IMG/VR virus record: IMGVR_UViG_2693429523_000013 | DNA: 22,934 nucleotides | From: a virus | Taxonomy: Duplodnaviria > Heunggongvirae > Uroviricota > Caudoviricetes | Reading direction: 5' to 3' (one strand) | Shown: positions 2,850-19,216 of the stretch, piece by piece | Layout: every line of letters begins with the position of its first letter | Numbering within the stretch: position 1 is the stretch's first letter | Notes under the pieces: generated by a model | What the model saw: the letters and a program-made list of their open reading frames with translations, nothing else | What the model was told of the DNA's origin: nothing | The model's database searches: none | Translations under genes and position numbers: made by a program

Positions 2850-4190
2850 TGCCGGTTGCTTCCGGAAGGTGTGACAAAATACGGAAATGATGATGCTCCC
2901 GGCCCCGCATGCTCACCTGCAGAGCGTGTTCGTCGTCATCATACTGAGCCATGACGGGCGTCTTAAGGGCATCCTGTCATTGCTGAGCAGGCAACACCAC
3001 CAGAGGAGCCACGGACAGGGATGTTCTTTACAGCCCGATACACGCCAGGTTCTCAGCAGACTGAATGTGCAGGTGCGGTTATTCACCAGAAATGGCATGC
3101 TGCGGTACATACCCATCCTGGTGACAATATGTACGTGGCGACAGCGATCCCGGCACTGTGGAAGAGACTCACTCAGCCTGCAGGATATTCTTTCCGGCAT
3201 CCGGGAATGTCCGCCTGAATGCAAACAGGATGATATTTGAATCCGTAATACTGTTCTTTCATCATAAATAATTTATGCAGATACAGTTAACCGTTACAGT
3301 AGCCGGTTTGTTTTACCGGGAAATAATATCCGTCAGACTGATGCCGGAACATATCTGAAACACGTTATGATGTTTTGTTATCAGAAATGTTGTATATTCT
3401 TATCCGTGGCGACAGTTTAATGCCCTCTGGTATCACCTTGGATTTGCCCCTATATTTACGGGACACGCCTCTTTTCATTGTGCTCCTTTTCAGACTTCAT
3501 TTTCCGTAAGTATTCCCCGGCATAAAGGAGGTACCTTTCTGGCGTTTATAACTCTCTTTATCGGTGACGCCGGTAATACAGGGAATACCACACCGACAAA
3601 CGAGGTATTAACAGACGATATTTCAGTGTCCATAATTTTTCTGTCCGGTTAAATAACGTCAGTCTGCTGCCCTCTGACTGTAATCATCAAAGCCGGAATG
3701 CATACCGGGTTACAACGTAAAAAAAGTGATGCTGGCCCCCGGTGCAGCTGGCGGGCGAAACATGTTTACCTTTCAATACCCCCTGTCTGCAGTCTCCACT
3801 CTTCCATCCTCTTAAGCTACGTCGGCCACATGAGTGCACTTCCATGATAACAGGTATTCCTGTCAGCATAACGAAGCAGGTTACCTTCCCTTCCTCCTGC
3901 ATTTCCTGTCAGAATGACTGTACAGCGCGCAGATTGCCTTTTTATTGACCACCTTAATATACCATTATAAACTTCTTTTTATCATGTTATTATCACCTTA
4001 TTATGTTTAATTTTTAAGCAACCGGAGAAAGAGGATGGTTCAGAAAATTTTGTCGGATAAGGTTATGAATGAAAGAACAAATGCGTATTACTCTTATTAT
4101 CTTGGAGAGCGTAATATCTCCGTACTACCCCTTAATGGTAACCGGCTCATTTAAACCGTCTGGTCTGTTTCCTCCGGCTCTACAAAAATA

Positions 4191-4868
4191 ATGTCCATCA
4201 TTTTTAATGGACACTATCGTATGAAACACCGGACCTGGATCACTGAAGCTTTACGTCTTCACTTTGAAGAACATTTACCCCGGGTTGTGGCCGGGCGTCG
4301 CCTGAGTGTACCAAAATCAACAGTTTGTAGTATGTTCGTGCGCTTTCGGAGAGCTGGCCTTTCGTGGCCTTTGCCCGCAGGCATGTCGGAGCAGGAACTT
4401 GATGCCTGCCTTTACGGACAATTTTCCACGGTACCAGTCGTACGTCCTGAAAGCACCGTTATATCCGAAGCCCCCGTGGTAAAAAAACGTCCCCGGCGGC
4501 CCAACTTCCCTTATGAGTTTAAAATCGCCTTAGTGGAGCAGTCACTACAGCCCGGAGCCTGTGTGGCGCAGATCGCCCGGGAAAACGGAATCAACGATAA
4601 CCTGCTCTTCAACTGGCGCCATCAATACCGGAAAGGTGGCCTGCTGCCTTCCGGAAAAAATATGCCGGCACTGCTTCCCGTGACGTTAACGCCGGAGCCG
4701 GATAATAAAATCCCGGCCCCCGCACAGGAACCAGAGCAGATAAATACACCGTCCGACAGTCTGTGTTGTGAGCTGGTTCTGCCGGCCGGAACTCTCAGGC
4801 TTAAAGGTAAACTGACGCCGGCGTTATTACAGACACTTATCCGCGAAATAAAAGGGAGCAGCCACTGA
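4191..4868 (+). CDS. tnpA: IS66-family accessory protein TnpA (orfA) with atypical N-terminal extension; start uncertain
   Basis: C-terminal part PRRPNFPYEFKIALVEQSLQPGACVAQIARENGINDNLLFNWRHQYRKGGL matches the IS66 TnpA HTH pattern. The first ~95 residues (..RRAGLSWPLPAGMSEQELDACLYGQ..) look like a separate transposase-type HTH. Confidence 0.65.
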   Translation: MSIIFNGHYRMKHRTWITEALRLHFEEHLPRVVAGRRLSVPKSTVCSMFVRFRRAGLSWPLPAGMSEQELDACLYGQFSTVPVVRPESTVISEAPVVKKRPRRPNFPYEFKIALVEQSLQPGACVAQIARENGINDNLLFNWRHQYRKGGLLPSGKNMPALLPVTLTPEPDNKIPAPAQEPEQINTPSDSLCCELVLPAGTLRLKGKLTPALLQTLIREIKGSSH

Positions 4869-5215
4869 TGATATCTCTCCCTGCAGGTTCGCGTATCTGG
4901 CTGGTTGCAGGTATCACCGATATGCGAAATGGCTTTAACGGCCTGGCATCAAAAGTTCAGAACGTCCTGAAGGATGACCCGTTCTCCGGACACCTGTTCA
5001 TCTTCCGCGGACGCCGGGGTGACCAGATAAAAGTGTTGTGGGCTGACAGTGACGGACTGTGCCTCTTCACCAAACGCCTGGAGCGGGGCCGCTTCGTCTG
5101 GCCAGTCACCCGTGACGGCAAGGTGCACCTTACTCCGGCTCAGTTATCCATGCTTCTTGAAGGTATCAACTGGAAGCACCCGAAACGAACGGAACGCGCT
5201 GGAATCCGCATATAA
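4868..5215 (+). CDS. tnpB: IS66-family TnpB (orf2), 115 aa
   Basis: MISLPAGSRIWLVAGITDMRNGFNGLASKVQ...GDQIKVLWADSDGLCLFTKRLERGRFVWP is the characteristic IS66 Orf2 sequence; start overlaps the tnpA stop. Confidence 0.9.
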   Translation: MISLPAGSRIWLVAGITDMRNGFNGLASKVQNVLKDDPFSGHLFIFRGRRGDQIKVLWADSDGLCLFTKRLERGRFVWPVTRDGKVHLTPAQLSMLLEGINWKHPKRTERAGIRI

Positions 5216-5234
5216 CCCGTTGTAAAGTGAGGAT

Positions 5235-6806
5235 ATGGACACCTCACTTGCTCATGAGAACGCCCGCCTGCGGGCACTGTTGCAGACGCAACAGGACACC
5301 ATCCGCCAGATGGCTGAATACAACCGCCTGCTCTCACAGCGGGTGGCGGCTTATGCTTCCGAAATCAACCGGCTGAAGGCGCTGGTTGCGAAACTGCAAC
5401 GTATGCAGTTCGGTAAAAGCTCAGAAAAACTTCGTGCAAAAACCGAACGGCAGATACAGGAAGCACAGGAGCGAATCAGCGCACTTCAGGAAGAAATGGC
5501 GGAAACGCTGGGTGAGCAATATGACCCGGTACTGCCATCCGCCCTGCGCCAGTCTTCAGCCCGTAAACCGTTACCGGCCTCACTTCCCCGTGAAACCCGG
5601 GTTATCCGGCCGGAAGAGGAATGCTGTCCTGCCTGTGGTGGTGAACTCAGTTCTCTGGGATGTGATGTGTCAGAGCAACTGGAGCTTATCAGCAGCGCCT
5701 TTAAGGTTATCGAAACACAACGTCCGAAACAGGCCTGTTGCCGGTGCGACCATATCGTGCAGGCACCAGTACCTTCAAAACCCATTGCACGCAGTTATGC
5801 CGGAGCGGGGCTTCTGGCCCATGTTGTCACCGGGAAATATGCAGACCATCTGCCGTTATACCGCCAGTCAGAAATATACCGTCGTCAGGGAGTGGAGCTG
5901 AGCCGTGCCACACTGGGGCGCTGGACAGGTGCTGTTGCTGAACTGCTGGAGCCGCTGTATGACGTCCTGCGCCAGTATGTGCTGATGCCCGGTAAAGTCC
6001 ATGCTGATGATATCCCCGTCCCGGTCCAGGAGCCGGGCAGCGGTAAAACCCGGACAGCCCGGCTGTGGGTCTACGTCCGTGATGACCGTAACGCCGGTTC
6101 ACAGATGCCCCCGGCGGTCTGGTTCGCGTACAGTCCGGACCGGAAAGGTATCCATCCACAAAATCACCTGGCCGGTTACAGCGGTGTGCTTCAGGCCGAT
6201 GCTTACGGTGGTTACCGGGCGTTATACGAATCCGGCAGAATAACGGAAGCCGCGTGTATGGCTCATGCCCGGAGAAAAATCCACGATGTGCATGCAAGAG
6301 CGCCCACCTACATCACCACGGAAGCCCTGCAGCGTATCGGTGAACTGTATGCCATCGAGGCAGAGGTCCGGGGCTGTTCAGCAGAACAGCGTCTGGCGGC
6401 AAGAAAAGCCAGAGCCGCGCCACTGATGCAGTCACTGTATGACTGGATACAGCAACAGATGAAAACACTGTCGCGTCACTCAGATACGGCAAAAGCGTTC
6501 GCATACCTGCTGAAACAGTGGGATGCACTGAACGTGTACTGCAGTAATGGCTGGGTGGAAATCGACAACAACATCGCAGAGAACGCCTTACGGGGAGTGG
6601 CCGTAGGCCGGAAAAACTGGATGTTCGCGGGTTCCGACAGCGGTGGTGAACATGCGGCGGTGTTGTACTCGCTGATCGGCACATGCCGTCTGAACAATGT
6701 GGAGCCAGAAAAGTGGCTGCGTTACGTCATTGAACATATCCAGGACTGGCCGGCAAACCGGGTACGCGATCTGTTGCCCTGGAAAGTTGATCTGAGCTCT
6801 CAGTAA
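5235..6806 (+). CDS. tnpC: IS66-family transposase TnpC (523 aa)
   Basis: N-terminal coiled-coil/leucine-zipper region, CxxC...CxxC zinc-finger motifs (CPACGG...CCRCDH) and a C-terminal DDE region typical of IS66 transposases; GAGG lies just upstream of ATG 5235. Confidence 0.9.
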
Positions 6807-6855
6807 ATATCAATACGGTTCTGACGAGTCGCTTACAAACAAAAGGCTGGTTAAC

Positions 6856-7077
6856 ATGAAAAAAATGGCAATTGTCGATAAAAAGGGTCTGGAGTACATT
6901 CCTAATATCGATCGTATGATCCGTGAGAAAGAATGTCGGGAGCTAACCACTCTTGCGAACAGCACACGCTGGAAGCTGGAGAAGGAAGGAAAATTTCCTA
7001 AGCGGATCAAGATTGGTTCCACTGCTGTTGCATATCGTCTTTCAGAAGTGCAGGCATGGATTAGGGGAGAGTGGTAA
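6856..7077 (+). CDS. AlpA-family HTH regulator (73 aa)
   Basis: ...ELTTLANSTRWKLEKEGKFPKRIKIGSTAVAYRLSEVQAWIRGE fits the AlpA/excisionase-like HTH pattern; begins 20 bp after the IS66 right end. Confidence 0.7.
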   Translation: MKKMAIVDKKGLEYIPNIDRMIREKECRELTTLANSTRWKLEKEGKFPKRIKIGSTAVAYRLSEVQAWIRGEW

Positions 7078-7128
7078 GAATTTAGACAGTGGATGTAATC
7101 CTATGGGGTAAACCCATAGGATTTGAAA

Positions 7129-8478
7129 TCACTTAAATTCAAATACGTGCGTAGTTGATGAGATTATATAATTAGGTGGTAAGTATTGAACTATTTCTCC
7201 ATCTTCTTCAAAAATATGAATAACTCTTGGGAATAATTCAGGGTGTATAGGATTTAATGCCTTCGGATTATGAAACATGTATATTGCTGTACACCATGGT
7301 TCTTGATATGAAGGTGCATTGACAAGAGCAGTAAAAGGCATTGGGGTACAGCCTTCATCAGTTTTAATACCTCTAACGATGGATTTGACATTTTTTTGTT
7401 CAATCCCTGCCACTACTCCCATCCTATCAAATTTTGGGATGGTGGCATGTGTCGCAAGTAATATGGCTGAGACATTCTCATTTTTATTAGAGCCGAAAAA
7501 ATTAGATTGTATACTTCGATTTTCAAATAAATGTTGTTCAATTTTACTTCCAGAATCCATATCTACACCATACAGATAGCTTTGTAGTGCTGGCATTGAT
7601 ATACTCATCGAAAATCTGCGTGAGTAATCGTGTAAAGCAATAATGAAAGGCTTTCCTTTTGTATGATCTAGTTCCCAATAGCATAATTTTAAGGGTTCAG
7701 GTTTATGCCTAACTTTCTTTAATAGAGTGCGGGCAAATTTGAATGGCATTTGTTCTTTTACATATCTCTGAAGATCTTCTACTGCCTCATGATCAAGTAT
7801 CAATTTCTCGGTAGGTTCCTCTTGTTCTGCAACTGTGGCAGCTTCTACAGCAATATCAATGCCATTTTTTGAGATAATATAATCAGGTTGAGCATAATCT
7901 CTGCATATTACGAAATCCATTTCGTAGAAAACTGCGTTTAGATAAAGTTCGAATAAGCGAGAGTTAAATGAAGCACTCTGGAAATCTCTGATGAATATTC
8001 CATCAGGATCTTTACACCAATAAGCTAACTCTTGCATAACAATAAATGCAGGATAGTGTTTGGGTTCCTCAAGTAGCATTCTTAGATAAACGTTTTTTTT
8101 ATGTTCTGGAACTTTGGCTAGGAATATTGAAAATGCCGACTCTGATTCGTCACCCTGTATAAAACAACCGTTCTTGTGTAGTGATAATAGCTCTGGTATG
8201 GCTTTTTCCATATCAGTAATTAAATCATCTTTAGATTCACGGGATACAATTACTTTAATCGCTCTAAATTTTTTATCTAAATCCCTACCTAGAAATATAG
8301 CGTTGTAATCATTATCTATTTTACAAAAAACAATTGTTGCTAAGATCGTGACATCATCCTTTATAAATTTGAACCAACAGATTTCCTCCGAAAAGGTTTT
8401 TACGTATGGTGTACGACCATAGAAAAATACATCAAATTGTTCTTTACTGATTTCTAGCATTTTGTGACTTGTTGTCAT
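7129..8478 (-). CDS. hypothetical protein, 449 aa, AT-rich cargo gene of unknown function
   Basis: Uninterrupted 1350-nt minus-strand ORF; AAGGA is 7 nt upstream of the ATG (complement of 8476-8478). Visibly AT-rich compared with flanking DNA (by eye, not computed). No confident family assignment. Confidence 0.7.
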   Translation of the reverse strand: MTTSHKMLEISKEQFDVFFYGRTPYVKTFSEEICWFKFIKDDVTILATIVFCKIDNDYNAIFLGRDLDKKFRAIKVIVSRESKDDLITDMEKAIPELLSLHKNGCFIQGDESESAFSIFLAKVPEHKKNVYLRMLLEEPKHYPAFIVMQELAYWCKDPDGIFIRDFQSASFNSRLFELYLNAVFYEMDFVICRDYAQPDYIISKNGIDIAVEAATVAEQEEPTEKLILDHEAVEDLQRYVKEQMPFKFARTLLKKVRHKPEPLKLCYWELDHTKGKPFIIALHDYSRRFSMSISMPALQSYLYGVDMDSGSKIEQHLFENRSIQSNFFGSNKNENVSAILLATHATIPKFDRMGVVAGIEQKNVKSIVRGIKTDEGCTPMPFTALVNAPSYQEPWCTAIYMFHNPKALNPIHPELFPRVIHIFEEDGEIVQYLPPNYIISSTTHVFEFK

Positions 8479-8501
8479 AGAAGAATCCTTTATGCAAATT
8501 A

Positions 8502-8696
8502 TCAGCCTTTAGGTGTTATTCCTTGTTTTATTAGTTCGGCACGAGCCAGTTCTTTTAGCCAGTTACCTAAGCTCATCCCTTCTTTGGCAGCGACATTAAC
8601 CATTTGTTCTTTTAATTCTGGGTTAATACGGACTTGGAATGCTGGTGCTTTACCTGCACCTTTCGGTTGTTTATCACGTTGAATGATAGTTGACAT
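8502..8696 (-). CDS. ribbon-helix-helix (Arc/CopG-like) DNA-binding protein, 64 aa; likely regulator of the downstream 449-aa gene
   Basis: ..FQVRINPELKEQMVNVAAKEGMSLGNWLKELARAEL.. matches the beta-strand/helix/helix pattern of Arc-type repressors. Its stop is 23 nt upstream of the 449-aa gene start on the same strand. Confidence 0.6.
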   Translation of the reverse strand: MSTIIQRDKQPKGAGKAPAFQVRINPELKEQMVNVAAKEGMSLGNWLKELARAELIKQGITPKG

Positions 8697-8738
8697 GTGT
8701 GTACCTATTGCTTAGTATGATTCTTGATAGGTACACAC
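8697..8738. promoter_or_regulatory. 12-bp perfect inverted repeat (GTGTGTACCTAT-N18-ATAGGTACACAC) directly upstream of the RHH gene; candidate operator or translational hairpin
   Basis: Arms at 8697-8708 and 8727-8738 are exact reverse complements. On the minus strand, the arm adjacent to the start codon contains the only SD-like sequence (AGGT) for the RHH gene. Confidence 0.4.
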
Positions 8739-8835
8739 CTTATCATGTTTTATTGCTATATAACAACGCCCTGCAGTGCTCGCAACACATACAGGGCGTC
8801 TAACCACCAACGATAGCAACAGTATCGAGGTAGCT

Positions 8836-9039
8836 ATGAGAAATCATACCACACACCCGCAAGGGCGGGATTCGCACAACCTGAATAAATACATCTGGCG
8901 TTTTATCGCCCTGAGCACCGCACAACCACGCGTAATACACATCGAGGCCGCCAGCGAACAGGAAGCCCGCCAGCAATCCCCAACTGGCTACGTGATGATA
9001 TTCGCCGCCCGTATTCGTCAGGAGGTGTGCCGTGCTTAA
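8836..9039 (+). CDS. hypothetical small protein (67 aa), first gene of the divergent plus-strand operon
   Basis: GAGG at 8827-8830 precedes ATG 8836. The track ORF from 8776 is longer but lacks an RBS. No family recognised. Confidence 0.35.
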   Translation: MRNHTTHPQGRDSHNLNKYIWRFIALSTAQPRVIHIEAASEQEARQQSPTGYVMIFAARIRQEVCRA

Positions 9040-9217
9040 AACCTTCCGTGTATTTGCCCGAGCTGTTAACCCACTGGGCCACACAATTGGTATCACTCAG
9101 AACGTGAAGGCTGTTAATGTTCAGACGGCTATTGCTGCGGTGAGAAGCGAATCATCAGAATATGGCTTATCACAAGTCATTATTTCAGCAGTGTATGAAT
9201 TAAAAGAGGTGCATTAA
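9032..9217 (+). CDS. hypothetical small protein (61 aa)
   Basis: GTG start at 9032 with GGAGG at 9021-9025 (6-nt spacing); overlaps the previous stop, suggesting translational coupling. Confidence 0.4.
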   Translation: MLKTFRVFARAVNPLGHTIGITQNVKAVNVQTAIAAVRSESSEYGLSQVIISAVYELKEVH

Positions 9218-9408
9218 TGAAGGAAATTACATTACACGAAGCCGCTGAACGTGCGCACCAGACAGAAATTATTTGCCGCCTTCTTGAGGTATACCCGAAC
9301 AAAATTACAGATGCTGATATATCCGCGCTGGCGAGCCTACTGGCGCGCCTTTCGGGAAGTGTCGCTAGTTTCCTGATTGAGGAAGAAAGTAAGCTGGTGG
9401 GGGATTAA
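9217..9408 (+). CDS. hypothetical small protein (63 aa)
   Basis: ATG overlaps the upstream stop (TAATG); AGAGG lies upstream. Confidence 0.45.
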   Translation: MKEITLHEAAERAHQTEIICRLLEVYPNKITDADISALASLLARLSGSVASFLIEEESKLVGD

Positions 9409-9630
9409 ATGAATACAGAACGGGAAGTCTTTTTTAAATTGTTAGCATGTGCAGAAAGTTCATTAACTTTAAATAATTCAGCAAAAGCAATATTAAATAT
9501 GTGGCTTGATTGCATAAATGACAATGAAGATGCAAATATTGCTTATGGCCTGTTGTCACTTATTGATGAATCAGCAGAAAAACTCAATGACGCAATAAAT
9601 AGTGCCCTGCTATCAAATAAGTCGAGTTAA
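9409..9630 (+). CDS. hypothetical small protein (73 aa), AT-rich
   Basis: Start immediately follows the previous stop and is preceded by a G-rich SD-like stretch. Confidence 0.45.
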   Translation: MNTEREVFFKLLACAESSLTLNNSAKAILNMWLDCINDNEDANIAYGLLSLIDESAEKLNDAINSALLSNKSS

Positions 9631-9647
9631 GTCGAGGAATAAATAAT

Positions 9648-9947
9648 ATGGAAATGAAAAATTCTGGCTTTATTGCCAGCGGCCCCGCTCGGCCTGAATT
9701 TATGAACGGCGATATTTACCGCGATAAATACGGCGGCACGGTAACGATTAAAGGCGTGGCAGAACGGCGCATCACTTACCGCCGTGAGGGGTATAGCTAT
9801 GACTGCGTGATGCCTGTTTATCAGTTCCGGCGTGATTTTTCCCTGGTATATGCCGCACCCCGCAGTAAGCCCATCAGCAGGGAAAAAGCGCGGGGAAACA
9901 TCCAGAAAATGAAAAGCATGATTAACGCATTCAGGGGCAAAAAATGA
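9648..9947 (+). CDS. hypothetical protein (99 aa)
   Basis: GAGGAA precedes the ATG; the stop overlaps the primase start (ATGA). Confidence 0.5.
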   Translation: MEMKNSGFIASGPARPEFMNGDIYRDKYGGTVTIKGVAERRITYRREGYSYDCVMPVYQFRRDFSLVYAAPRSKPISREKARGNIQKMKSMINAFRGKK

Positions 9948-11695
9948 AACTGGCACCGAACTTAAAAAAACAGCCACGCGACAGACTGACAGAGGTAATC
10001 ATCTTTGCAGGTAGTGATGCGTGGAGCCATGCGAAAGAGTGGCGGGAATGGGCGGGTAAACATATTGCCGCCGACGATGTGCCGCCTGTCGTGCTGGCTG
10101 ATGAGCAACTGAAAAATATCACCGATTACCGGATCATTGATGAAGATCGTCAGTGTGTGCGTGTTTACCGCGCAGGACATATCACAGAGCACAGCATGAC
10201 GCAGATTGTTACGTTACTGGCTGTGGCTGGAGTGAAGACCGTACACGAATACGCGGGGATTACTGACACCAGCCCAGTGGATTTATCCGAGCAGTTGCCG
10301 CGACTCAAAGAGGAATGCGAGCGTGGGGAAAGTCTGGTGCTTAATCTTCCGACGAAGCAAAAGGCGCAACTTTCACAGATGGCAGACAGTGAACGTGCAC
10401 AACTACTTGCCGATCGCTTTGATGGTGTGTGTGTTCATGCAGAAAGTGAAATCGTCCACGTATGGCGCGGCGGGGTATGGTGTCCGGTCAGCACAATGGA
10501 GCTGAGCCGCGAAATGGTGGCGATCTATTCAGAGCACAGGGCCACGTTCAGCAAACGTGTAATCAATAACGCCGTGGAAGCGTTAAAAGTTATTGCCGAC
10601 CCCATGGGGGAGCCGTCCGGTGATTTGCTACCGTTCACTAATGGTGTGCTTAACCTGAAAACGGGGGAATTTTCTCCGCACTCGCCGGAGCACTGGAGCA
10701 CCACGCACAATGGCATTGAGTACACGCCACCAGTAGCAGGGGAAAACATCCGCGATAATGCGCCAAATTTCCATAAATGGCTTGAACATGCTGCAAGAAA
10801 AGACCCGCGTAAGATGATGCGTATATGTGCCGCGTTATACATGATTATGGCGAACCGCTACGACTGGCAGATGTTCATTGAGGCCACCGGAGACGGGGGA
10901 AGCGGTAAGAGTACATTTACCCATATTGCCACCCTGCTTGCTGGCAAACAGAACACCGTAAGCGCGGAGATGACATCACTCGATGATGCAGGAGGGCGCG
11001 CGCAGGTTGTCGGGAGTCGTCTTATCGTCCTTGCCGATCAGCCGAAATATACGGGGGAAGGCACGGGCATCAAGAAAATCACGGGAGGCGATCCCGTTGA
11101 AATTAACCCGAAATATGAGAAGCGATTCACGACGATAATAAGGGCGGTGGTACTGGCAACCAATAACGACCCGATGATCTTTACCGAACGGGCCGGAGGT
11201 GTGTCACGCCGTCGGGTGATTTTCCGGTTCGACAACATTGTAAGGGAGGACGAAAAAGACAAGGAATTACCGGAAAAGATAGCGGCAGAAATCCCCGTAA
11301 TTATCCGCCGCTTGCTGGCTAATTTTGCTGCCCCTGAAAAGGCACGGGCTTTATTACTGGAACAGCGTGACGGTGATGAAGCTCTGGCAATAAAGCAGCA
11401 AACGGATCCGGTTGTTGAGCTTTGCGCGGCGCTGGAGTTTCTGGAGGAAGCTCGTGGGCTAATGATGGGCGGTGGTGGTGACACCGTGAAGTACACGACC
11501 AGAAACAGCCTTTACCGTGTCTATATGGCCTTCATGGCATACACAGGAAAGGGGAAATGTTTGAGCGTGAATGAGTTCGGAAAGGCTATGAGGTCAGCGG
11601 CGAAAGTTTACGGATATGAATATATTACGCGAAAAGTTAAGGGAGTCACGCAGACCAACGCAACGACTACTGATGATTGCGATGCGTTTTTATAA
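9944..11695 (+). CDS. phage/plasmid primase-helicase, P4-alpha C-terminal type (D5_N-like plus SF3 NTPase), 583 aa
   Basis: Walker A GDGGSGKST and Walker B-like RLIVLADQP; overall architecture is that of P4-family / PICI replication proteins as recalled. An iteron array lies directly downstream. Confidence 0.85.
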   Translation: MKLAPNLKKQPRDRLTEVIIFAGSDAWSHAKEWREWAGKHIAADDVPPVVLADEQLKNITDYRIIDEDRQCVRVYRAGHITEHSMTQIVTLLAVAGVKTVHEYAGITDTSPVDLSEQLPRLKEECERGESLVLNLPTKQKAQLSQMADSERAQLLADRFDGVCVHAESEIVHVWRGGVWCPVSTMELSREMVAIYSEHRATFSKRVINNAVEALKVIADPMGEPSGDLLPFTNGVLNLKTGEFSPHSPEHWSTTHNGIEYTPPVAGENIRDNAPNFHKWLEHAARKDPRKMMRICAALYMIMANRYDWQMFIEATGDGGSGKSTFTHIATLLAGKQNTVSAEMTSLDDAGGRAQVVGSRLIVLADQPKYTGEGTGIKKITGGDPVEINPKYEKRFTTIIRAVVLATNNDPMIFTERAGGVSRRRVIFRFDNIVREDEKDKELPEKIAAEIPVIIRRLLANFAAPEKARALLLEQRDGDEALAIKQQTDPVVELCAALEFLEEARGLMMGGGGDTVKYTTRNSLYRVYMAFMAYTGKGKCLSVNEFGKAMRSAAKVYGYEYITRKVKGVTQTNATTTDDCDAFL

Positions 11696-11711
11696 AAAAT
11701 GGCAATGGTTA

Positions 11712-11934
11712 TCTACCTTGTCTACCTGACTGAAAGAAAATACTTTTATTTCAATGTATTAATGCAGGTAGATAACTATTTTTCACTGTCTACCTGTTAT
11801 CTACCTTATCTACCCATTTTTGTAGACAGGTAAGGAGACGGGTAGAGATGAGGTAGACAGCTATTTGGGGCTGTCTACCTCCCTGAAACCCGCGCCATTA
11901 CTGGCCTGATAACTAATCAGGTAGACAAGGTAGA
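11712..11934. repeat. iteron array; candidate replication origin of the satellite-like module
   Basis: About 12 copies of the hexamer TCTACC / GGTAGA in both orientations (TCTACC at 11712, 11721, 11789, 11800, 11809, 11874; GGTAGA at 11767, 11841, 11852, 11920, 11929, plus a partial copy at 11822). An AT-rich spacer sits at 11731-11766, immediately 3' of the primase gene. Confidence 0.6.
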
Positions 11935-11984
11935 CAAGGTGGTGGTGCACAAAAAACTTTTTAAACGAGGGGGTAAAAATAAAA

Positions 11985-12242
11985 ATGCACACATCAGGAA
12001 AACTGAACAAACATATAAAGCCACATTACCGCGCCCTTGATATGGCTGAACACTGGCTAAGGGTGGCGATTAAGGCAATAGACCGCAACGCCGGGGAAGG
12101 ATACGCGAAAGCACATCCCGAACTGATAAGCGCATTCATGACAACGGCGGCTGCAAACTTTGCCACGCTGACCGAACGGGAGATTGCTGAAGCGGAGGAA
12201 GTGACAACAATCAATATTAAGTCCGGAGAGCAGGCAGCATGA
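11985..12242 (+). CDS. hypothetical protein (85 aa)
   Basis: GAGGGGG lies upstream of the ATG; the stop overlaps the ssb start (ATGA). Confidence 0.5.
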   Translation: MHTSGKLNKHIKPHYRALDMAEHWLRVAIKAIDRNAGEGYAKAHPELISAFMTTAAANFATLTEREIAEAEEVTTINIKSGEQAA

Positions 12243-12688
12243 CGGCGCAAATATCAGTTTACGGGCGGTTGGTGGACGACCCGCAGACAAAACAGACCAG
12301 CAAGGGCACCCCCATGACGCTGGCGCGTATGGCGGTATCACTGCCCTGCAGTCAGTCGGATGACGGTCTGGCGACGTTGTGGTTATCTGTCCTGGCGTTT
12401 GGCAGACAAGCCGACGCGCTGGCAAAGCATCACAAAGGCGAACTCCTGAGCGTGGCGGGTAACATGCAGATGAGCCAGTGGACTGGACAGAACGGCGAAA
12501 CGCGGCAGGGCTGGCAGGTTATCGCAGACAGCGTAATCAGTGCGCGATCGGTGCGACCGGGCGGCAAAAAAGGCCAACAGGGGCAGGCTACTGACGCACT
12601 GAACAGAGCAAAACAACAGGCAGATCAGCAAGGAAGCCAGCCACCAGAGGGAGATAATGAGCAATGGGGAGATGATATCCCGTTTTAA
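12239..12688 (+). CDS. ssb: single-stranded DNA-binding protein (149 aa)
   Basis: OB-fold region aligns by eye with E. coli SSB (ISVYGRLVDDPQ.., WLSVLAFGRQAD, GELLSVAGNMQMSQWTGQNGE..); Gly/Gln-rich linker; acidic C-terminal tip ...WGDDIPF matches the SSB DDDIPF tail. Confidence 0.85.
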   Translation: MTAQISVYGRLVDDPQTKQTSKGTPMTLARMAVSLPCSQSDDGLATLWLSVLAFGRQADALAKHHKGELLSVAGNMQMSQWTGQNGETRQGWQVIADSVISARSVRPGGKKGQQGQATDALNRAKQQADQQGSQPPEGDNEQWGDDIPF

Positions 12689-12904: not shown

Positions 12905-13945
12905 ATGGTTGATTTATATTCGCCTACCCAGCTTGTACAGGTGGTTAATGCTGTAGATGTACAAAAACAACTAAATGCGTTGTTTACCAGTTTGTTTTTT
13001 ACTCGCTCGGTAATGTTTGGATCGCGCGATATTATTCTTGATACAATCGACGATCCAAATATCCCAATTGCAGCGTTTTGTTCTCCTATGGTGGGTAGTA
13101 AAGTTTCACGTGACGAAGGGTACGAATCAAAAACAATTCGTCCAGGCTATATGAAGCCGAAAAGCAGCATTGATCCAAATAAGTTAGCTGTGCGCCCTGC
13201 TGGTGTATCACCTGAGCAATACAATGCTTTTGGGGCGCGTAATATTAAAGTTAAACAGGCGATTGTAAATCAAGCTAAAGCTATTCGTGCACGTATTGAA
13301 TGGCTTGCCGTTCAGGCAATCACAACGGGGAAAAATATCATTGAGGGCGATGGTATTGAACGTTATGAGCTGGACTGGAATATTAAACCACAAAATATCA
13401 TCACTCAGTCTGGCGGTACTGAGTGGTCAGGTAAGGATAAAGAAACTTTTGATCCAAATGATGATATTGAGAGCTACGCAGAATTTAGTGAGGGCGTCAC
13501 TAATATCATCATTATGGGCGGTAATGTATGGAAGAAATACCGTTCATTCAGAGCGATAAAAGAGGCTCTGGATACCCGTCGTGGTTCTAATTCCGAACTG
13601 GAAACGGCCCTTAAAGACCTTGGTGATTCGGTGAGTTTTAAAGGATATATGGGCGATGTTGCGATTGTTGTTTACAGCGGGCGTTATACCGACGAGGACG
13701 GAACTGAAAAACATTTCCTTGATCCTGATTTGATGGTGCTTGGCAATACGGCTCTTCAGGGGATTGTCGCCTATGGCGGTATTCAGGATCCGGAGCTAAT
13801 CCGAATGGGGCTGACTAAAGCCGAACTTGCACCGAAAAACTATATTGTGCCTGGTGATCCGGCTATTGAATATGTGCAGACACATTCAGCACCACAGCCA
13901 ATACCGGCCCGCATCAATCGTTTTGTTACCGTTCGCATTGGCTAA
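12905..13945 (+). CDS. major capsid protein, lambda gpE family (346 aa), divergent from lambda
   Basis: Aligns by eye along its length with lambda gpE (PGYMKPK.., NIITQSGGTEWSGKDK.., DTRRGSNSELETA identical, C-terminal ..GDPA.E...QSAP..). AGAGGA is 5 nt before ATG 12905; the track ORF start at 12692 adds 71 residues with no homology. Confidence 0.8.
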   Translation: MVDLYSPTQLVQVVNAVDVQKQLNALFTSLFFTRSVMFGSRDIILDTIDDPNIPIAAFCSPMVGSKVSRDEGYESKTIRPGYMKPKSSIDPNKLAVRPAGVSPEQYNAFGARNIKVKQAIVNQAKAIRARIEWLAVQAITTGKNIIEGDGIERYELDWNIKPQNIITQSGGTEWSGKDKETFDPNDDIESYAEFSEGVTNIIIMGGNVWKKYRSFRAIKEALDTRRGSNSELETALKDLGDSVSFKGYMGDVAIVVYSGRYTDEDGTEKHFLDPDLMVLGNTALQGIVAYGGIQDPELIRMGLTKAELAPKNYIVPGDPAIEYVQTHSAPQPIPARINRFVTVRIG

Positions 13946-13954
13946 GGGGGAGCA

Positions 13955-14296
13955 ATGGCTACTCATTACACTGAACTCATGGCTGGCACTGAAGCACTGG
14001 TGACTACGCTGGGGATATTTTCAGCTAATAAAGGGGTAATTCCTGCATTTACGCCACTGATGCAGGAAGATGCAACAGGTGCACTGGTGGTATGGGATGG
14101 TTCGAGCGTAGGTAAAGCGGTTTATGTTTCCGCTGTACAAATCGACACCGCGAAAAAAACACAGGCTCAGGTCTATAAGACAGGTGTCTTAAATGTTGAT
14201 GCTCTGAACTGGCCTGAGTCTGTAAAAGAACTGTCAGTAAAGATTGCAGCGTTTGTTGGCTCAGGTATTTCTGTTCAGCCGCTGGCTCGTGTGTAA
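13955..14296 (+). CDS. head decoration protein, lambda gpD-like (113 aa)
   Basis: ..TPLMQEDATGALVVWDGSSVGKAVYVSAVQ...YKTGVLNVDALNWPE...AAFVGSGISVQPL parallels lambda gpD (..TPLM...KLVAWDG...YKSGTF..VLWPE..AFAGTAISIV) as recalled. AAGGGGGA RBS present. Confidence 0.7.
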   Translation: MATHYTELMAGTEALVTTLGIFSANKGVIPAFTPLMQEDATGALVVWDGSSVGKAVYVSAVQIDTAKKTQAQVYKTGVLNVDALNWPESVKELSVKIAAFVGSGISVQPLARV

Positions 14297-14307: not shown

Positions 14308-14691
14308 ATGCAAAATGATTACAATGACCTTAAGCCAATTGCCGAAATGATGTACCCGAATCCAGCTGTAGAGGAATTAAAAGCTATCGCTGACAAAATG
14401 TGTTTAAGCGAGCGCCTTGTTGATATGAATCAGGTGATGGAAATTACAACCCTGAGTCGGCGTACACTGCTAAACCTTGAGGCTAGTGGAGAGTTCCCGG
14501 AGCGTGTGCAGGTTACGGAAGGGCGTAAGGCCTGGTATTTAAGTGAAGTGATCGACTGGATAAATAATATTCCTCGCGCTTCTGAATATTGCCGCGTACC
14601 TGTCCCAAAAAAGCCAGATGCGGCGCTATGCCTCAAGATTGAGCGTGTACGCCGCAATGCACGGGATGGTCGCTATAAGCTGATTGGTTGA
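14308..14691 (+). CDS. AlpA-type HTH domain protein with ~40-aa N-terminal extension (127 aa)
   Basis: Residues ~40-90 (MNQVMEITTLSRRTLLNLEASGEFPERVQVTEGRKAWYLSEVIDWI) fit the AlpA HTH pattern; AAGGGGGA RBS before ATG 14308. Confidence 0.6.
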   Translation: MQNDYNDLKPIAEMMYPNPAVEELKAIADKMCLSERLVDMNQVMEITTLSRRTLLNLEASGEFPERVQVTEGRKAWYLSEVIDWINNIPRASEYCRVPVPKKPDAALCLKIERVRRNARDGRYKLIG

Positions 14692-14744
14692 TGAAATTAG
14701 GGCCCGCTCTGGCTGGCGGGTCCTTTCCGGCGATCTGACAGGCT

Positions 14745-14912
14745 ACGGGGCGTCAGGCGCGCGGATTTTCGCTATTTATGAAAATTTTCCGGTTTAAGGC
14801 GTTTCCGTTCTTCTTCGTCGTAACTTAATGTTTTTATTTAAAATACCCCCTGAAAAGAAAGGAAACGACAGGTGCTGAAAGCGAGCTTTTTGGCCTCTGT
14901 CGTTTCCTTTCT
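14745..14912 (+). promoter_or_regulatory. lambda-type cos region: cosN-like site (~14745-14762) and cosB with three CGTTTCC-core R elements
   Basis: 14760-14936 reads almost exactly as the recalled lambda left-end/cosB sequence upstream of Nu1. R3 is at 14791-14797, inverted R2 at 14861-14867 and R1 at 14901-14907; R2/R1 lie in a 16-bp perfect inverted repeat (14856-14871 / 14897-14912). The 12-mer at 14748-14759 is GGGCGTCAGGCG rather than the recalled lambda GGGCGGCGACCT. Confidence 0.7.
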
Positions 14913-14936
14913 CTGTTTTTGTCCGTGGAATGAACA

Positions 14937-15488
14937 ATGGAAGTCAACAAAAAGCAGCTGGCTGACATTTTCGGTGCGAGTATCCGTACCATTCAGAACT
15001 GGCAGGAACAGGGAATGCCCGTTCTGCGAGGCGGTGGCAAGGGTAATGAGGTGCTTTATGACTCTGCCGCCGTTATAAGATGGTATGCCGAAAGGGATGC
15101 TGAAATTGAGAACGAAAAGCTGCGCCGGGAAGTTGAAGAACTGCGGCAGGCCAGCGAGACAGATCTCCAGCCAGGGACTATTGAGTACGAACGCCATCGA
15201 CTTACGCGTGCGCAGGCCGACGCACAGGAACTGAAGAATGCCAGCGAAACAGGTGAGGTAATTGACACTGCATTTGCGACTTATGCCTTGTCGAAATTAA
15301 CTGGGGAAGTTGGAGCAATCATTGATAGTCTTCCACTTGCGATCTGTCGACAGTTTCCTGGCATGGAAAAACGGTATCAGGACTTCATTAAGATGGAGGT
15401 CAGTAAAGCATTTATTCGAGCTTACCAGATCTCAGATAACATTCCAGATATGGCTGAAAGGTATATCAAGGATAATCAGCGAAGTTAA
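14937..15488 (+). CDS. Nu1: terminase small subunit Nu1, chimeric: lambda-type N-terminal DNA-binding domain with a divergent C-terminal domain
   Basis: First ~100 residues (MEVNKKQLADIFGASIRTIQNWQEQGMPVLRGGGKGNEVLYDSAAVI.WYAERDAEIENEKLRREVEELRQASE.DLQPGTIEYERHRLTRAQADAQELKNA) match lambda gpNu1 as recalled; the C-terminal ~80 residues are similar in length but clearly different. Confidence 0.9.
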   Translation: MEVNKKQLADIFGASIRTIQNWQEQGMPVLRGGGKGNEVLYDSAAVIRWYAERDAEIENEKLRREVEELRQASETDLQPGTIEYERHRLTRAQADAQELKNASETGEVIDTAFATYALSKLTGEVGAIIDSLPLAICRQFPGMEKRYQDFIKMEVSKAFIRAYQISDNIPDMAERYIKDNQRS

Positions 15489-15594: not shown

Positions 15595-16500
15595 TTAAGG
15601 TAGTGGTACTATGGATATTTTTCTGTCGTTCCCAAATGAACTTTTAAATAATTTCGCTCTTGGATACATTTTAACTAGTGATGCGACTTCATCGAACTCG
15701 CTGGCATCAAAAAGAGGACCAAGTATTACAGATTTTAACTCAAAAGGGTGAAATTTTAAGTCGCTATATTGACCAGTGCTATTTGGCCTAGCGTAGGTTG
15801 AAATTCTCCACTCTCTTTCATATGCCCATTCTTCTGTTTTTATGAATATTATCTCATTATTGATATATTCAATTGACTTATTGTCTGGCATGAAAAGCAA
15901 CTCGGCCATCCCTTCAGCAGTGTGAGTTAGAGGCATTTCATCTGTGTATTTCATAGGTTTGGCTATTAACCAAGCGCTATCCAGAAAGTCTACACAATCA
16001 AATTCGATAACTATACCTTTATATTTATCGGCATAGTGATTCCACATAGGAGTGATTATAGGGCTCTCAGATAAACACAAAATCCTTCTGTTATTAAGCA
16101 TTCCTCGCCAGACATCTTTCATTTCTTGTATTGCCGCAGGAGCGCCAATCCCAACTGGTGGAATGTTTACCATTTCTTGAAATCTTTCAATTAATCCTGC
16201 GGGTATGCCTAAAGGAAATGACTTTTGGAAATCACTTAGCATTGTTCTAATTCTAGGGTTTAAATTTTGTATGTCTTCTCTGGGGGTAATCAACTCCGCT
16301 ATTAACTTGCGGGCTAAAGCTTTGCCAATATTAATTTCGTTAATACCAGGCATAACTTCTCTTGGAACATCAAAAGGGTCATTAAATAGGACCGGAGAAC
16401 TCCATCTAAGGCTGCATGAATCAAGAACAATCTTCGCGGTATTCAACGACATATACTTATAAAATGTTGAGCGTTCATGCATTCTGTTGGGTGAGCGCAT
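15595..16500 (-). CDS. DUF2971-like protein (301 aa), AT-rich moron
   Basis: N-terminal ..STFYKYMSLNTAKIVLDSCSLRWSSPVLFNDPFDV.. matches the recalled DUF2971 signature (YKY.S...L...lw.S.p..FNDPFD). AGAGGA is 4 nt upstream of the ATG (complement of 16498-16500). AT-rich by eye. Confidence 0.7.
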   Translation of the reverse strand: MRSPNRMHERSTFYKYMSLNTAKIVLDSCSLRWSSPVLFNDPFDVPREVMPGINEINIGKALARKLIAELITPREDIQNLNPRIRTMLSDFQKSFPLGIPAGLIERFQEMVNIPPVGIGAPAAIQEMKDVWRGMLNNRRILCLSESPIITPMWNHYADKYKGIVIEFDCVDFLDSAWLIAKPMKYTDEMPLTHTAEGMAELLFMPDNKSIEYINNEIIFIKTEEWAYEREWRISTYARPNSTGQYSDLKFHPFELKSVILGPLFDASEFDEVASLVKMYPRAKLFKSSFGNDRKISIVPLP

Positions 16501-16648
16501 AGATTCCTCTTGTTAAATGAGTGATGGTTTTCATCCATGTATTGCACGTTGTATTGCATTCAAGGATTTTCCATTTCAATTCTATAGCTAAAACGTAATC
16601 AAATCATTCACATCCTTTCATATTTGACTCATGTAGCCGAAGCATGAG

Positions 16649-17425
16649 GTGAATCCGCAGATGACCCTGCGTCGCCTGCCGGATGAAGATCCGCAGAATC
16701 TGGCGGACCCGGCTTACCGCCGCCGTCGCATCATCATGCAGAACATGCGAGACGAAGAGCTGGCCATTGCTCAGGTCGAAGAGATGCAGGCAGTTTCTGC
16801 TGTGCTTAAGGGCAAATACACCATGACCGGTGAAGCCTTCGATCCGGTTGAGGTGGATATGGGCCGCAGTGCGGCGAACAACATCACACAGTCCGGTGGT
16901 ACGGAGTGGAGCAAGCGTGACAAGTCCACGTATGACCCGACCGACGATATCGAAGCCTATGCGCTGAACGCCAGCGGAGTGGTGAATATCATCGTGTTTG
17001 ATCCGAAAGGCTGGGCGCTGTTCCGTTCCTTCAAAGCCGTCAAGGAGAAGCTGGATACCCGTCGCGGCTCTAATTCCGAGCTGGAGACAGCGGTAAAAGA
17101 CCTGGGCGAAGCGGTGTCCTATAAGGGGATGTATGGCGATACGGCGATCGTCGTGTATTCCGGACAGTACGTGGAAAACGACGTCAAAAAGAACTTCCTT
17201 CCGGACAACACGATGGTGCTGGGGAACTCTCAGGCACGCGGTCTGCGCACCTATGGCTGCATTCAGGATGCGGACGCACAGCGCGAAGGTATTAACGCCT
17301 CTGCCCGCTACCCGAAAAACTGGGTGACCACCGGCGATCCGGCGCGTGAGTTCACCATGATTCAGTCAGCACCGCTGATGCTGCTGGCTGACCCTGATGC
17401 GTTCGTGTCCGTACAACTGGCGTAA
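16649..17425 (+). pseudogene. E: major capsid protein E, lambda-type, 5'-truncated (lacks ~80 N-terminal codons)
   Basis: Translation MNPQMTLRRLPDEDPQNLADPAYRRRRIIMQNMRDEE... to ..FVSVQLA is near-identical to lambda gpE residues ~84-341 as recalled. Lambda similarity begins near 16637; an in-frame TAG sits at 16634-16636 and upstream DNA is unrelated. Confidence 0.8.
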
Positions 17426-17466
17426 TCATGGCCCTTCGGGGCCATTTTCTCTCTGTGGAGGAGTCT

Positions 17467-17862
17467 ATGACGAAAGATGAACTGATTGCCCGTCTTCAGG
17501 TGCTGGGTGAGCAACTGAACCGTGATGTCAGCCTGACGGGGACGAAAGAAGAACTGGTGCTCCGTGTGGCAGAGCTGGAAGAGGAGCTTGATGACACGGA
17601 TGACGCTGCCGGTCAGGACACATCTGTCAGCCCGGAAAATGCGCTGACCGGACATGAAAATGAGGTTGTATCAGCGCAGCCGGATACCGTGACTGATACG
17701 GCTGATCTGGTCACGGTTGTGGCACTGGTGACGCTGCATACTGATGCACTTCACGCCACGCGGGATGAGGCTGTGGCATTTGTGCTGCCGGGAACGGCGT
17801 TCCGTGTCTCTGCCGGTGTGTCAGCTGAAATGACAGAGCGCGGCCTGGCCAGAATGCAATAA
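17467..17862 (+). CDS. FI: lambda-type FI protein (DNA packaging / head assembly)
   Basis: MTKDELIARLQVLGEQLNRDVSLTGTKEEL...TERGLARMQ is near-identical to lambda gpFI; GGAGGAG RBS before ATG 17467. The track ORF from 17428 is an upstream extension. Confidence 0.9.
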   Translation: MTKDELIARLQVLGEQLNRDVSLTGTKEELVLRVAELEEELDDTDDAAGQDTSVSPENALTGHENEVVSAQPDTVTDTADLVTVVALVTLHTDALHATRDEAVAFVLPGTAFRVSAGVSAEMTERGLARMQ

Positions 17863-17873
17863 CGGGAGGCGCT

Positions 17874-18227
17874 GTGGCTGATTTCGATAACCTGTTCGAT
17901 GCTGCCATTGCCCGCGCCGATGAAACGATACGCGGGTACATGGGAACGTCAGCCACCATGACATCCGGTGAGCAGTCCGGCGCAGTAATACGTGGTGTTT
18001 TTGATGACCCTGAAAATATCAGCTATGCCGGACAGGGCGTGCGCGTTGAAGGCTCCAGCCCGTCCCTGTTTGTCCGGACTGATGATGTGCGGCAGCTGCG
18101 GCGCGGCGACACGCTGACCATCGGTGAGGAAAACTTCTGGATAGACCGGATTTCGCCGGATGATGGCGGAAGCTGTCATCTCTGGCTTGGGCGGGGCGTA
18201 CCGCCTGCCGTTAACCGTCGCCGCTGA
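17874..18227 (+). CDS. FII: lambda-type FII head-tail joining protein
   Basis: MADFDNLFDAAIARADETIRGYMGTSA...HLWLGRGVPPAVNRRR is near-identical to lambda gpFII. Confidence 0.92.
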   Translation: MADFDNLFDAAIARADETIRGYMGTSATMTSGEQSGAVIRGVFDDPENISYAGQGVRVEGSSPSLFVRTDDVRQLRRGDTLTIGEENFWIDRISPDDGGSCHLWLGRGVPPAVNRRR

Positions 18228-18238
18228 AAGGGGGATGT

Positions 18239-18817
18239 ATGGCCATAAAAGGTCTTGAGCAGGCCGTTGAAAACCTCAGTCGTATCAGCAGAGCGGCGGT
18301 GCCCGGTGCCGCCGCAATGGCCATTAACCGCGTTGCTTCATCCGCGATATCGCAGTCGGCGTCACAGGTTGCCCGTGAGACAAAGGTACGCCGGAAACTG
18401 GTAAAGGAAAGGGCCAGGCTGAAAAGGGCCACGGTCAAAAATCCGCAGGCCAGAATCAAGGTTAACCGGGGGGATTTGCCCGTAATAAAGCTGGGTAACG
18501 CGCGGATTGTCCTGTCCCGACGCAGGCGTCGTAAAAAGGGGCAGCGTTCAGCCCTGAAAGGTGGCGGCAGCGTGCTTGTGGTGGGAAACCGTCGTATTCC
18601 CGGCGCGTTTATTCAGCAACTGAAACATGGCCGCTGGCATGTCATGCAGCGTGTGGCCGGGAAAAACCGTTACCCCATTGATGTGGTGAAAATCCCGATG
18701 GCGGTGCCGCTGACCACGGCGTTTAAACAGAATATTGAGCGGATACGGCGTGAGCGTCTTCCGAAAGAGCTGGGCTATGCGCTGCAGCATCAACTGAGGA
18801 TGGTAATAAAGCGATGA
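18239..18817 (+). CDS. Z: lambda-type minor tail protein Z
   Basis: MAIKGLEQAVENLSRISRAAVPGAAAMAINRVASS... 192 aa, matches lambda gpZ. Confidence 0.92.
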   Translation: MAIKGLEQAVENLSRISRAAVPGAAAMAINRVASSAISQSASQVARETKVRRKLVKERARLKRATVKNPQARIKVNRGDLPVIKLGNARIVLSRRRRRKKGQRSALKGGGSVLVVGNRRIPGAFIQQLKHGRWHVMQRVAGKNRYPIDVVKIPMAVPLTTAFKQNIERIRRERLPKELGYALQHQLRMVIKR

Positions 18818-19209: not shown

Positions 19210-19216
19210 GGACGCT

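Follow-up and report, generated by a model that had tools for sequence, protein, structure and literature searches.

A variant cosN allele in the cos site of a helper-embedded satellite of lambdoid prophages

Cohesive ends in lambda-like phages and their satellites

It is established that cosN, the terminase nicking site within cos, varies naturally and that this variation is functionally tolerated. The site is functionally asymmetric: mutations at bp 7-12 have a minimal effect, G2C lowers the yield about tenfold and C11G has no effect (PMC4669245). The CG dinucleotides flanking the nicks are conserved, and natural variants depart from lambda at bp 9 and 12 in N15 and phiD326 and at bp 8, 9 and 11 in Gifsy-1; the lambda TerL uses the N15 cosN as well as its own (PMC4669245). 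The TerL endonuclease shows little specificity for sequence; TerS, bound to cosB, places it at a fixed distance (PMC9026076, PMC4856287). As quoted in PMC9303873, Vahanian et al. 2017 reportedly found that lambda-like phages conserve the four leading bases along with two bases to each side. Natural variation at bp 7-12 has been documented already (PMC4669245; PMC9303873 and PMC12315714, both citing Vahanian et al. 2017). The cosN of both mEp213 and LLS is GGGCGGCGCGCT (PMC12315714).

Two kinds of satellite are close to the one described here. The Rpp-type PICIs such as EcCICFT073 are satellites of lambda-like phages which carry a cos of their own and need the TerL of the helper; their cosQ and cosN match those of the helper, while their cosB is unrelated and is read by Rpp, a short TerS-like protein without the tail that binds TerL, whose gene lies downstream of cos (PMC6092414, PMC6739421, PMC9026076). 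The helper-embedded PICIs (HE-PICIs) are an established family whose prototype for the present purpose is 11capE, found in prophage 50icd of E. coli NRG857c (PMC10111431). It is inserted in capsid gene E with a 10-bp block of identity at att, has a size of about 11 kb, and shows the order int-alpA, variable zone, primase and a late zone with its own capsid gene. Satellite and helper have a cos-like region in common, with a 258-bp stretch 90% identical to the helper cos, and the element is stated to be without terS; cosN goes unmentioned in this account (PMC10111431). At the gene E site 201 such elements have been described, and 209 pairs of helper and HE-PICI have been mapped (Tommasini, Mageeney & Williams 2023, PMC10111431).

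The cos site and the element that carries it

The window analyzed here is the whole stretch of 22,934 nucleotides of the virus record IMGVR_UViG_2693429523_000013. Its cos site belongs to a HE-PICI of the 11capE kind, which lies in gene E of a lambdoid prophage; it is not the cos of a lambda prophage. The element and its surroundings consist of:

4138..6850, + strand: IS66-family (ISCro1-like) element, replacing the satellite integrase, attL and the helper genes from Nu1 to E'
6856..12688, + strand: satellite body from alpA to SSB, with the gene order of the composites L001, L003 and L143-L147
6856-7077, + strand: alpA (satellite body)
7129-8478, - strand: PD-T7-1 defence gene (satellite body)
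9648-9947, + strand: DUF4222 gene (satellite body), beside an icd-like gene
9944-11695, + strand: D5-type primase gene (satellite body)
12239-12688, + strand: SSB gene (satellite body)
12905-13945, + strand: lambda-E-like major capsid gene of the satellite (Pfam Phage_cap_E), about 45% identical to helper E
13955-14296, + strand: gpD-like decoration gene of the satellite (Pfam HDPD), about 37% identical to helper D
14308..14691, + strand: second AlpA-like HTH gene (Pfam Phage_AlpA), ending 27 nt before cosQ
14937..15488, + strand: chimeric Nu1-family small terminase gene of the satellite, 183 aa (Pfam Phage_Nu1, E = 3.6e-84)
15595..16353, - strand: right-end gene of the satellite, coding for a DUF2971 protein (PADLOC candidate PDC-S31)
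16635..16644, + strand: attR core AGCCGAAGCA, where the satellite joins the C-terminal part of helper gene E
16637..17425, + strand: 3' part of the helper major capsid gene E, with FI, FII, Z, U, V and more tail genes behind it

The organization is that of a PICI, with alpA, a variable zone, a primase and replication zone and a late zone with captured late genes; the attR core, the 3' part of E and the genes FI to V place it in the site group of capsid gene E. Similarity to an intact E gene resumes at 16637. In composite L001 the 10-mer AGCCGAAGCA flanks the satellite at both ends (8034 and 18605), in agreement with the identity block at the 11capE att. The same block of genes is found in complete E. 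coli genomes inside an island of 10.6-11.3 kb, which lies in the major capsid gene of a lambdoid prophage between 10-bp AGCCGAAGCA repeats and reads integrase, alpA, variable cargo zone, icd-like, DUF4222, primase, SSB, capsid, decoration, second AlpA-like, cos, Nu1-like, DUF2971. WP_001178671 homologues in the composites match the second AlpA-like protein of the window at 100% identity, and the 3' end of the window gene for this protein marks the satellite context of the cos. The element thus resembles 11capE in insertion site, att block, size, gene order and a cos region common to satellite and helper, and differs from it in having a chimeric Nu1-family gene and an IS truncation.

To the left of the IS66-family element, positions 1-4137 belong to an unrelated island. 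The HE-PICI tyrosine integrase expected next to alpA is not in the window, where the IS66-family element takes its place; only its last few bases are left at about 6836, and sibling copies carry an integrase of 411 aa. There is likewise no attL in the window, and seven sibling composites have one. Intact composites are found, for example, in strains NRG857c, ECA64 and 23AR0885. Because the integrase has been replaced, the window represents a truncated member of the HE-PICIs, and with both integrase and attL lost to the IS this copy cannot excise. No arrangement identical to its exact IS junction was found in complete E. coli genomes.

The cos itself has the following parts:

14718..14724, + strand: cosQ, GGGTCCT, identical to lambda and DE3 at the homologous position and 30 nt upstream of the cohesive end (extent taken as lambda 48473-48479, as reportedly given by Wieczorek & Feiss 2001)
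14746..14761, + strand: cosN in its 16-bp sense, CG + GGGCGTCAGGCG (14748-14759) + CG, assigned by positional homology to the DE3 cos site
14765..14797, + strand: I2, the bent DNA that separates cosN from cosB, corresponding to lambda bp 18-50 (coordinates transferred from PMC4856287)
14797..14812, + strand: TerS-binding site R3, AGGCGTTTCCGTTCTT, equal to lambda bp 50-65 (extent according to PMC9026076), at the lambda spacing from cosN
14856..14871, - strand: TerS-binding site R2, inverted, AGAAAGGAAACGACAG, the reverse complement of R1 and identical to lambda
14897..14912, + strand: TerS-binding site R1, CTGTCGTTTCCTTTCT, identical to lambda and DE3

I2 differs from lambda at one position, bp 18, and the I1/IHF region lies between R3 and R2. 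With cosQ and cosB placed at the lambda spacing, R3 starting at bp 50 and the nick-flanking CG kept at 14746-14747 and 14760-14761, the site is of the lambda type, and the nicks would be expected to follow 14747 (top strand) and 14759 (bottom strand). As in lambda, a Nu1-family gene begins about 190 nt downstream of bp 1. In contrast to the lambda cos, the site belongs to a satellite, has overhangs which are not complementary to those of lambda, and is without gpA behind Nu1.

The window 12-mer is GGGCGTCAGGCG and its lambda counterpart is GGGCGGCGACCT. Its immediate flanks are ggtcctttccggcgatctgacaggctacg to the left and cgcggattttcgctatttatgaaaattttccgg to the right; within 14700-14940 it is preceded by gggtcctttccggcgatctgacaggctacg and followed by cgcggattttcgctatttatgaaaattttccggtttaaggcgtttccgttcttcttcg. 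Phage DE3, a lambda derivative, served as the lambda reference, and its annotated 'cos site' reads GGGCGGCGACCT with the same flanks, which bears out the lambda sequence given in the initial annotation. That annotation had counted about five departures from the canonical cosN between lambda-like flanks; the alignment gives exactly five, at bp 6, 8, 9, 10 and 12, with bp 1-5, 7 and 11 as in lambda, and cosQ, R3, R2 and R1 are all lambda-identical. In an ungapped comparison of the 220 nt from -31 to +189 there are 11 differences from lambda. The clustering of five of these inside the 12-mer is not a matter of chance, since the one-sided Fisher p is 7.6e-5. Three more lie within 18 nt of it, at -12, -5 and +18; outside the 12-mer the cos region is about 95% identical to lambda, and no indels occur from cosQ through cosN to R3. 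The change creates a BssHII-like GCGCGC site, which we see no reason to think relevant, and the idea that the variant creates a meaningful motif was considered and dropped.

GGGCGTCAGGCG retains the CG at either nick, bp 1-5 with the sequence GGGCG, C11 and the spacing to R3. Four of its changes, at bp 8, 9, 10 and 12, fall within the tolerant bp 7-12, and the fifth, at bp 6, replaces G by T. G6T is also present in the natural allele GGGCGTCGACCT, and it is this natural occurrence in two alleles which suggests that a change at bp 6 may be tolerated. The N15, phiD326, Gifsy-1, mEp213 and LLS variants depart from lambda at fewer positions than the window allele, whose five include bp 6 and 10. 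The calculated stability of the overhang duplex is -18.7 kcal/mol for GGGCGTCAGGCG vs -19.0 kcal/mol for lambda; a duplex of one overhang with the other, in which 5 of the 12 positions are non-complementary, is calculated at about -9 kcal/mol.

The small terminase behind the site is a chimera. Its residues 1-102 are nearly identical to the Nu1 of lambda and of the helper, and residues 1-98 match the TerS of PDB 6hn7_B; residues 103-183 reach no more than about 40% identity with any phage Nu1, and at the DNA level the 96.6% identity to the helper stops at 15244. The window has no gpA gene after this Nu1-like gene. Two other copies have a satellite TerS pseudogene with an internal stop; part of the satellite family may therefore be decaying, given that the composite of the window is broken as well. 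The locus differs from an Rpp-type PICI in that R3, R2 and R1 are lambda-identical and the protein is a full-length Phage_Nu1 member matching a 6hn7 TerS chain, not Rpp. The pattern mirrors that of the Rpp-type PICIs, which keep cosN and change cosB; in the window cosQ and cosB match the helper and cosN differs.

Recurrence of the 12-mer and other cosN alleles

The exact 22-mer around GGGCGTCAGGCG was found in 17 IMG/VR contigs, 13 with a satellite context and four with phage contexts, and GGGCGTCAGGCG occurs at the homologous position also in seven E. coli chromosomal composites and in strain ETEC1717. It is identical in 18 satellite-context copies (the window included) and five further composites, i.e. 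about 22 others, these copy counts being upper bounds on independent observations since the IMG/VR contigs and RefSeq genomes may overlap. The surroundings of the 12-mer vary among the satellite copies. The cosQ-cosN spacer reads gatctgacaggc, gatccagaacgt, gatccggcaggc or gatccggtaggc, the right flank cgcgga, cgcagt or cgcggg, and the left flanks differ too; there are two primase types of about 47% identity and two unrelated cosB/TerS modules, one lambda-like and the other with a TerS-like protein about 37% identical. A search of the PDB with this second TerS-like module gave no match. The invariance of the 12-mer among satellites could partly reflect recent common ancestry rather than selection.

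In the phage contexts (the four IMG/VR contigs and ETEC1717) an ordinary Nu1 gene lies behind GGGCGTCAGGCG. One of them, the prophage contig L015, has intact ORFs for Nu1 (181 aa), A (641 aa), W, B, C, D, E, FI, FII, Z, U and V. The exact allele is present in none of 50,697 deposited phage records, and its use by a viable phage is therefore deduced from prophage predictions. The nearest deposited phages are PhiR46_1 (PV340565) and YDC107_1 (CP025712), both with GGGCGGAAGGCG. This allele has the right half A8, G9, G10, C11, G12 and the flanks in common with the window allele and differs from it by 2 nt, with GA instead of TC at bp 6 and 7. GGGCGGAAGGCG is mainly found in phages, among them an intact-looking prophage of ETEC1721, and its single satellite copy is the capE-type L098. 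No paper on the PhiR phage series was found, and the viability of PhiR is taken from the GenBank records alone.

Among the IMG/VR matches listed, the lambda-type cos sites fall into discrete alleles. When the degenerate scan of IMG/VR, with its at least 120 matches, was pooled with the loci from a targeted scan, which contributed most of the GGGCGTCAGGCG copies, the counts were at least 109 for GGGCGGCGACCT, at least 22 for GGGCGTCAGGCG and at least 10 for GGGCGGAAGGCG; rarer alleles in the same pool were GGGCGGCAGCGG (at least 3), GGGCGTCGACCT (at least 1) and GGGCGGCGACCG (at least 1). The matches listed include 94 distinct lambda-type cos sequences, in which bp 5 is invariant, bp 11 is C in 93 of the 94, and bp 6, 7, 8, 9, 10 and 12 are variable. 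The invariance of the flanks in the degenerate scan is uninformative because the search pattern fixed them. A lambda-type cos is present in 4,457 of 5,426 complete E. coli genomes; about 209 records match a variant-type query at 90% or more vs 4,274 at the level that the canonical allele should give. Scanning genome contigs with a looser pattern gave nine lambda-type sites, eight canonical and one GGGCGGAAGGCG, the other matches being mostly chance hits in GC-rich genomes. This looser pattern also matched a conserved coding sequence of Rhodobacteraceae.

The large terminases do not follow the alleles. TerLs at least 98.7% identical to the TerL of a canonical-cosN helper adjoin four cosN alleles; the L015 TerL shares 99.4% identity with the TerL of one such helper, and those of PhiR46_1 and YDC107_1 are 99.4-99.5% identical to canonical-cosN helpers. 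Among 45 full-length TerLs of at least 95% identity no residue was found to be fixed between alleles, and the sole full-length TerL beside GGGCGTCAGGCG has one private change, S269G, outside the nuclease region. Since near-identical TerLs adjoin four cosN alleles, nothing points to a new terminase specificity.

A literal full-text search of the literature with GGGCGTCAGGCG, its reverse complement and the sister alleles gave unrelated primers only, Vahanian et al. 2017 being outside its scope. That paper apart, neither GGGCGTCAGGCG, nor its near-fixation in capE-type HE-PICIs, nor the discordance between helper and satellite described below was found stated in the literature.

Use of the site and the mismatch with the helper

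We consider it likely that GGGCGTCAGGCG is a functional natural allele of cosN, i.e. the terminase nicking site in the cos of the 11capE-type HE-PICIs. It is probably still cut normally and leaves ends unable to pair with those of the helper. A Nu1-type TerS, either that of the helper, the chimeric one of the satellite or both, would bind the lambda-identical R3, R2 and R1 and position the gpA-type TerL of the helper at the usual distance, and TerL would then nick the two strands with a 12-bp stagger, inside the conserved pair of CG dinucleotides. The excised satellite could be packaged from cos to cos as a concatemer; with a unit of 10.6-11.3 kb, four units would amount to 42-45 kb. Lambda heads accept roughly 38-51 kb, so that four units are within range. 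A parallel to four-unit packaging is found in the phage-length multimers reported for EcCICFT073 (PMC6092414). After injection the 5' overhangs of GGGCGTCAGGCG, which fit each other, would allow the DNA to circularize. The sequence difference itself may have originated from the tolerance of cosN at bp 7-12 together with recombination which shuffles small cos segments among lambdoid phages and satellites.

If the site is used in this way, the apparent anomaly is explained: the 'wrong' sticky end would be a normal feature of an established satellite family nested in lambdoid prophages and not damage. Several discrete cosN alleles circulate among E. coli lambda-type phages with nearly identical TerLs. 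The allele bears on the prediction of phage and satellite termini and on delivery tools based on cosmids or PICIs, and it is a natural case in which to test how few bases of cosN are read by the lambda terminase.

Three other readings of the 12-mer were weighed against a functional allele, all of them touched upon in the initial annotation. The sequencing or recombination scar suggested there, i.e. an artefact of sequencing, assembly or local recombination in the window, has practically no chance of being right and is refuted because GGGCGTCAGGCG recurs identically in many independent assemblies and in metagenome-derived contigs. A cosN inactivated in a domesticated or defective element, a decaying remnant which is no longer cut, has more to recommend it as far as the window copy is concerned, which does sit in a composite that has lost the integrase, attL and the helper head genes to the IS66-family element; other copies have an IS insertion in the cos region (L003) or pseudogenes for TerS and SSB, and the published 11capE/50icd pair gave no detectable plaques (PMC10111431). 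For the site itself this reading is nevertheless highly improbable. A dead site should have collected different mutations in each copy, but the 12-mer stays unchanged across about 22 other satellite copies with varying flanks, the constrained positions are all kept, the overhang is as stable as that of lambda, and in L015 the allele precedes an intact head-gene module.

The suggestion of a distinct cohesive-end specificity held for the end and found no support for the enzyme. The end does have a sequence of its own, which by calculation would not pair with ends of the lambda type (-9 vs -19 kcal/mol). That the allele would need a different or modified terminase, either a chimeric TerS which retargets the helper TerL or one of a few TerLs able to cut it, is very unlikely. 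Many copies do encode the Nu1-family protein which diverges at residues 103-183, the C-terminal 40 or so residues of Nu1 are the proposed TerL-binding domain (PMC9026076), and Rpp satellites provide a precedent for the retargeting of packaging by TerS-like proteins (PMC6739421). The same allele, however, is found with the second TerS-like module, with an ordinary Nu1 and with a satellite TerS interrupted by a stop, and the prototype 11capE is without terS (PMC10111431). No TerL residue goes with the allele, S269G being outside the nuclease region, and the lambda TerL does not discriminate between the lambda and N15 alleles of cosN (PMC4669245).

A functional allele would leave the question of why satellite and helper differ. 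In all seven composites examined the helper prophage has the canonical cosN and the embedded satellite the variant, and the helper cos lies about 15 kb upstream of the satellite cos in the same orientation. With enzyme and cutting as proposed above, the mismatch could be adaptive, the satellite being selected to keep ends which cannot anneal to those of the helper: a chromosome running from one cos to the other would have non-matching ends and could not circularize, the satellite would be isolated genetically, and interference with the helper might be strengthened. The discordance (7/7) is seen although the surroundings of the two cos sites, within one molecule, are about 96% identical over some 530 bp, which should favor gene conversion. 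All four combinations of the -5 polymorphism and the cosN allele exist, so recombination reaches within a few bases of cosN, and yet the satellites retain the 12-mer; the alleles also differ by several substitutions at once in TerL backgrounds which are 99% identical. A mismatch of 2 nt between the ends lowers the number of viable phage about fourfold (PMC4669245), and here there are five mismatches and a cross-duplex of -9 vs -19 kcal/mol. We nevertheless hold an adaptive origin to be unlikely. Of the E. coli cos sites about 95% have the canonical allele, and of the capE satellites about 85% have the variant; these frequencies alone predict discordance, the probability of 7/7 being roughly 0.2. 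Related portal-gene HE-PICIs with another integrase (L090, L116) carry the canonical allele and the capE-type L098 carries GGGCGGAAGGCG. The variant allele is also present in phages (L015 and others), so that certain pairs of satellite and helper would have matching ends. Because of these frequencies, exceptions and variant-allele phages, adaptive incompatibility is a minority reading.

It is similarly doubtful that the cosN alleles act as compatibility groups of cohesive ends, with the embedded satellite selected for ends incompatible with its own helper. If they did, hybrid chromosomes between the two cos sites would be dead on arrival and the helper capsids wasted on them. From the satellite cos it is roughly 46 kb to the next helper cos, which is a length that can be packaged.

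The small terminase gene of the satellite

The published prototype 11capE is reportedly without terS, whereas the satellite of the window, a helper-embedded PICI of the same kind, carries a gene of the family of Nu1, the small terminase (TerS) of lambda:

14937-15488, chimeric Nu1-family small terminase, with a Nu1-like N-terminal part and a divergent C-terminal part

Residues 1-102 are nearly identical to the Nu1 protein of lambda and of the helper, the DNA being 96.6% identical as far as position 15244. Residues 103-183 show only about 40% identity to any phage Nu1, and it is within this divergent part that the proposed TerL-binding tail falls. The gene contains an internal stop in two of the satellite/helper composites (L145 and L147).

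Exchange of modules between satellites

Two IMG/VR satellites which are inserted beside a fragment of a portal gene (L090 and L116) have a near-identical late module (99% for the capsid protein, 95% for the AlpA-like protein). Their integrase shows 54% identity, and both carry the canonical cosN allele. Exchange of the late module, and of the cosN allele, is therefore independent of the integration module.

A second cosB/TerS module is found in the same satellite family, in L012 and also in L005, L010, L013, L018, L019 and L098:

L012, 10091-10642, second cosB/TerS module, in which cosB and the TerS-like protein differ

Its cosB has a different sequence (ttatgagcattttaaggggactggtgg...), and its TerS-like protein, which shares about 37% identity with Nu1, gave no match in a search of the PDB. 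The cosQ and cosN of the satellites with this module are unchanged.

The scan of genome contigs with a loose cosN pattern (hits L150-L243) returned many matches in Rhodobacteraceae; these lie within one conserved protein-coding sequence and are not cos sites.

Putative defence cargo and IS66-family insertions

Two genes of the satellite gave PADLOC matches:

7129-8478, minus strand, protein of 449 aa, match to PD-T7-1, an anti-phage defence protein (E = 1e-153)
15595-16353, minus strand, DUF2971 gene at the right end of the satellite, match to PDC-S31, a candidate defence family (E = 2.5e-32)

The 449-aa protein, for which a Pfam search gave no match, is encoded in the variable zone directly behind alpA. 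The cargo of this zone differs between copies: L003 has an Abi protein, whereas L143 and L147 have DUF2971 together with a SWIM protein. The zone looks like a defence-gene hotspot.

The left part of the window, and another IS66-family insertion in strain E203449, comprise:

1-4137, unrelated island with genes for an inovirus Gp2 family protein, an HTH regulator and Hha/YmoA
4138-6850, IS66-family (ISCro1-like) element bridging the truncated satellite and the island
L003 (E203449), 16992-19580, second IS66-family element, between the satellite cos and the TerS gene

The satellite integrase, attL and the helper genes from Nu1 to E' are absent from the window. The island matches E. coli STN0717-20 at 100% identity and strain HS at 99.9%; the exact IS66/satellite/island junction had no match among the complete E. 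coli genomes searched. The insertion point in E203449 is not that of the window, and the satellite seems to be a repeated target of IS66-family elements.
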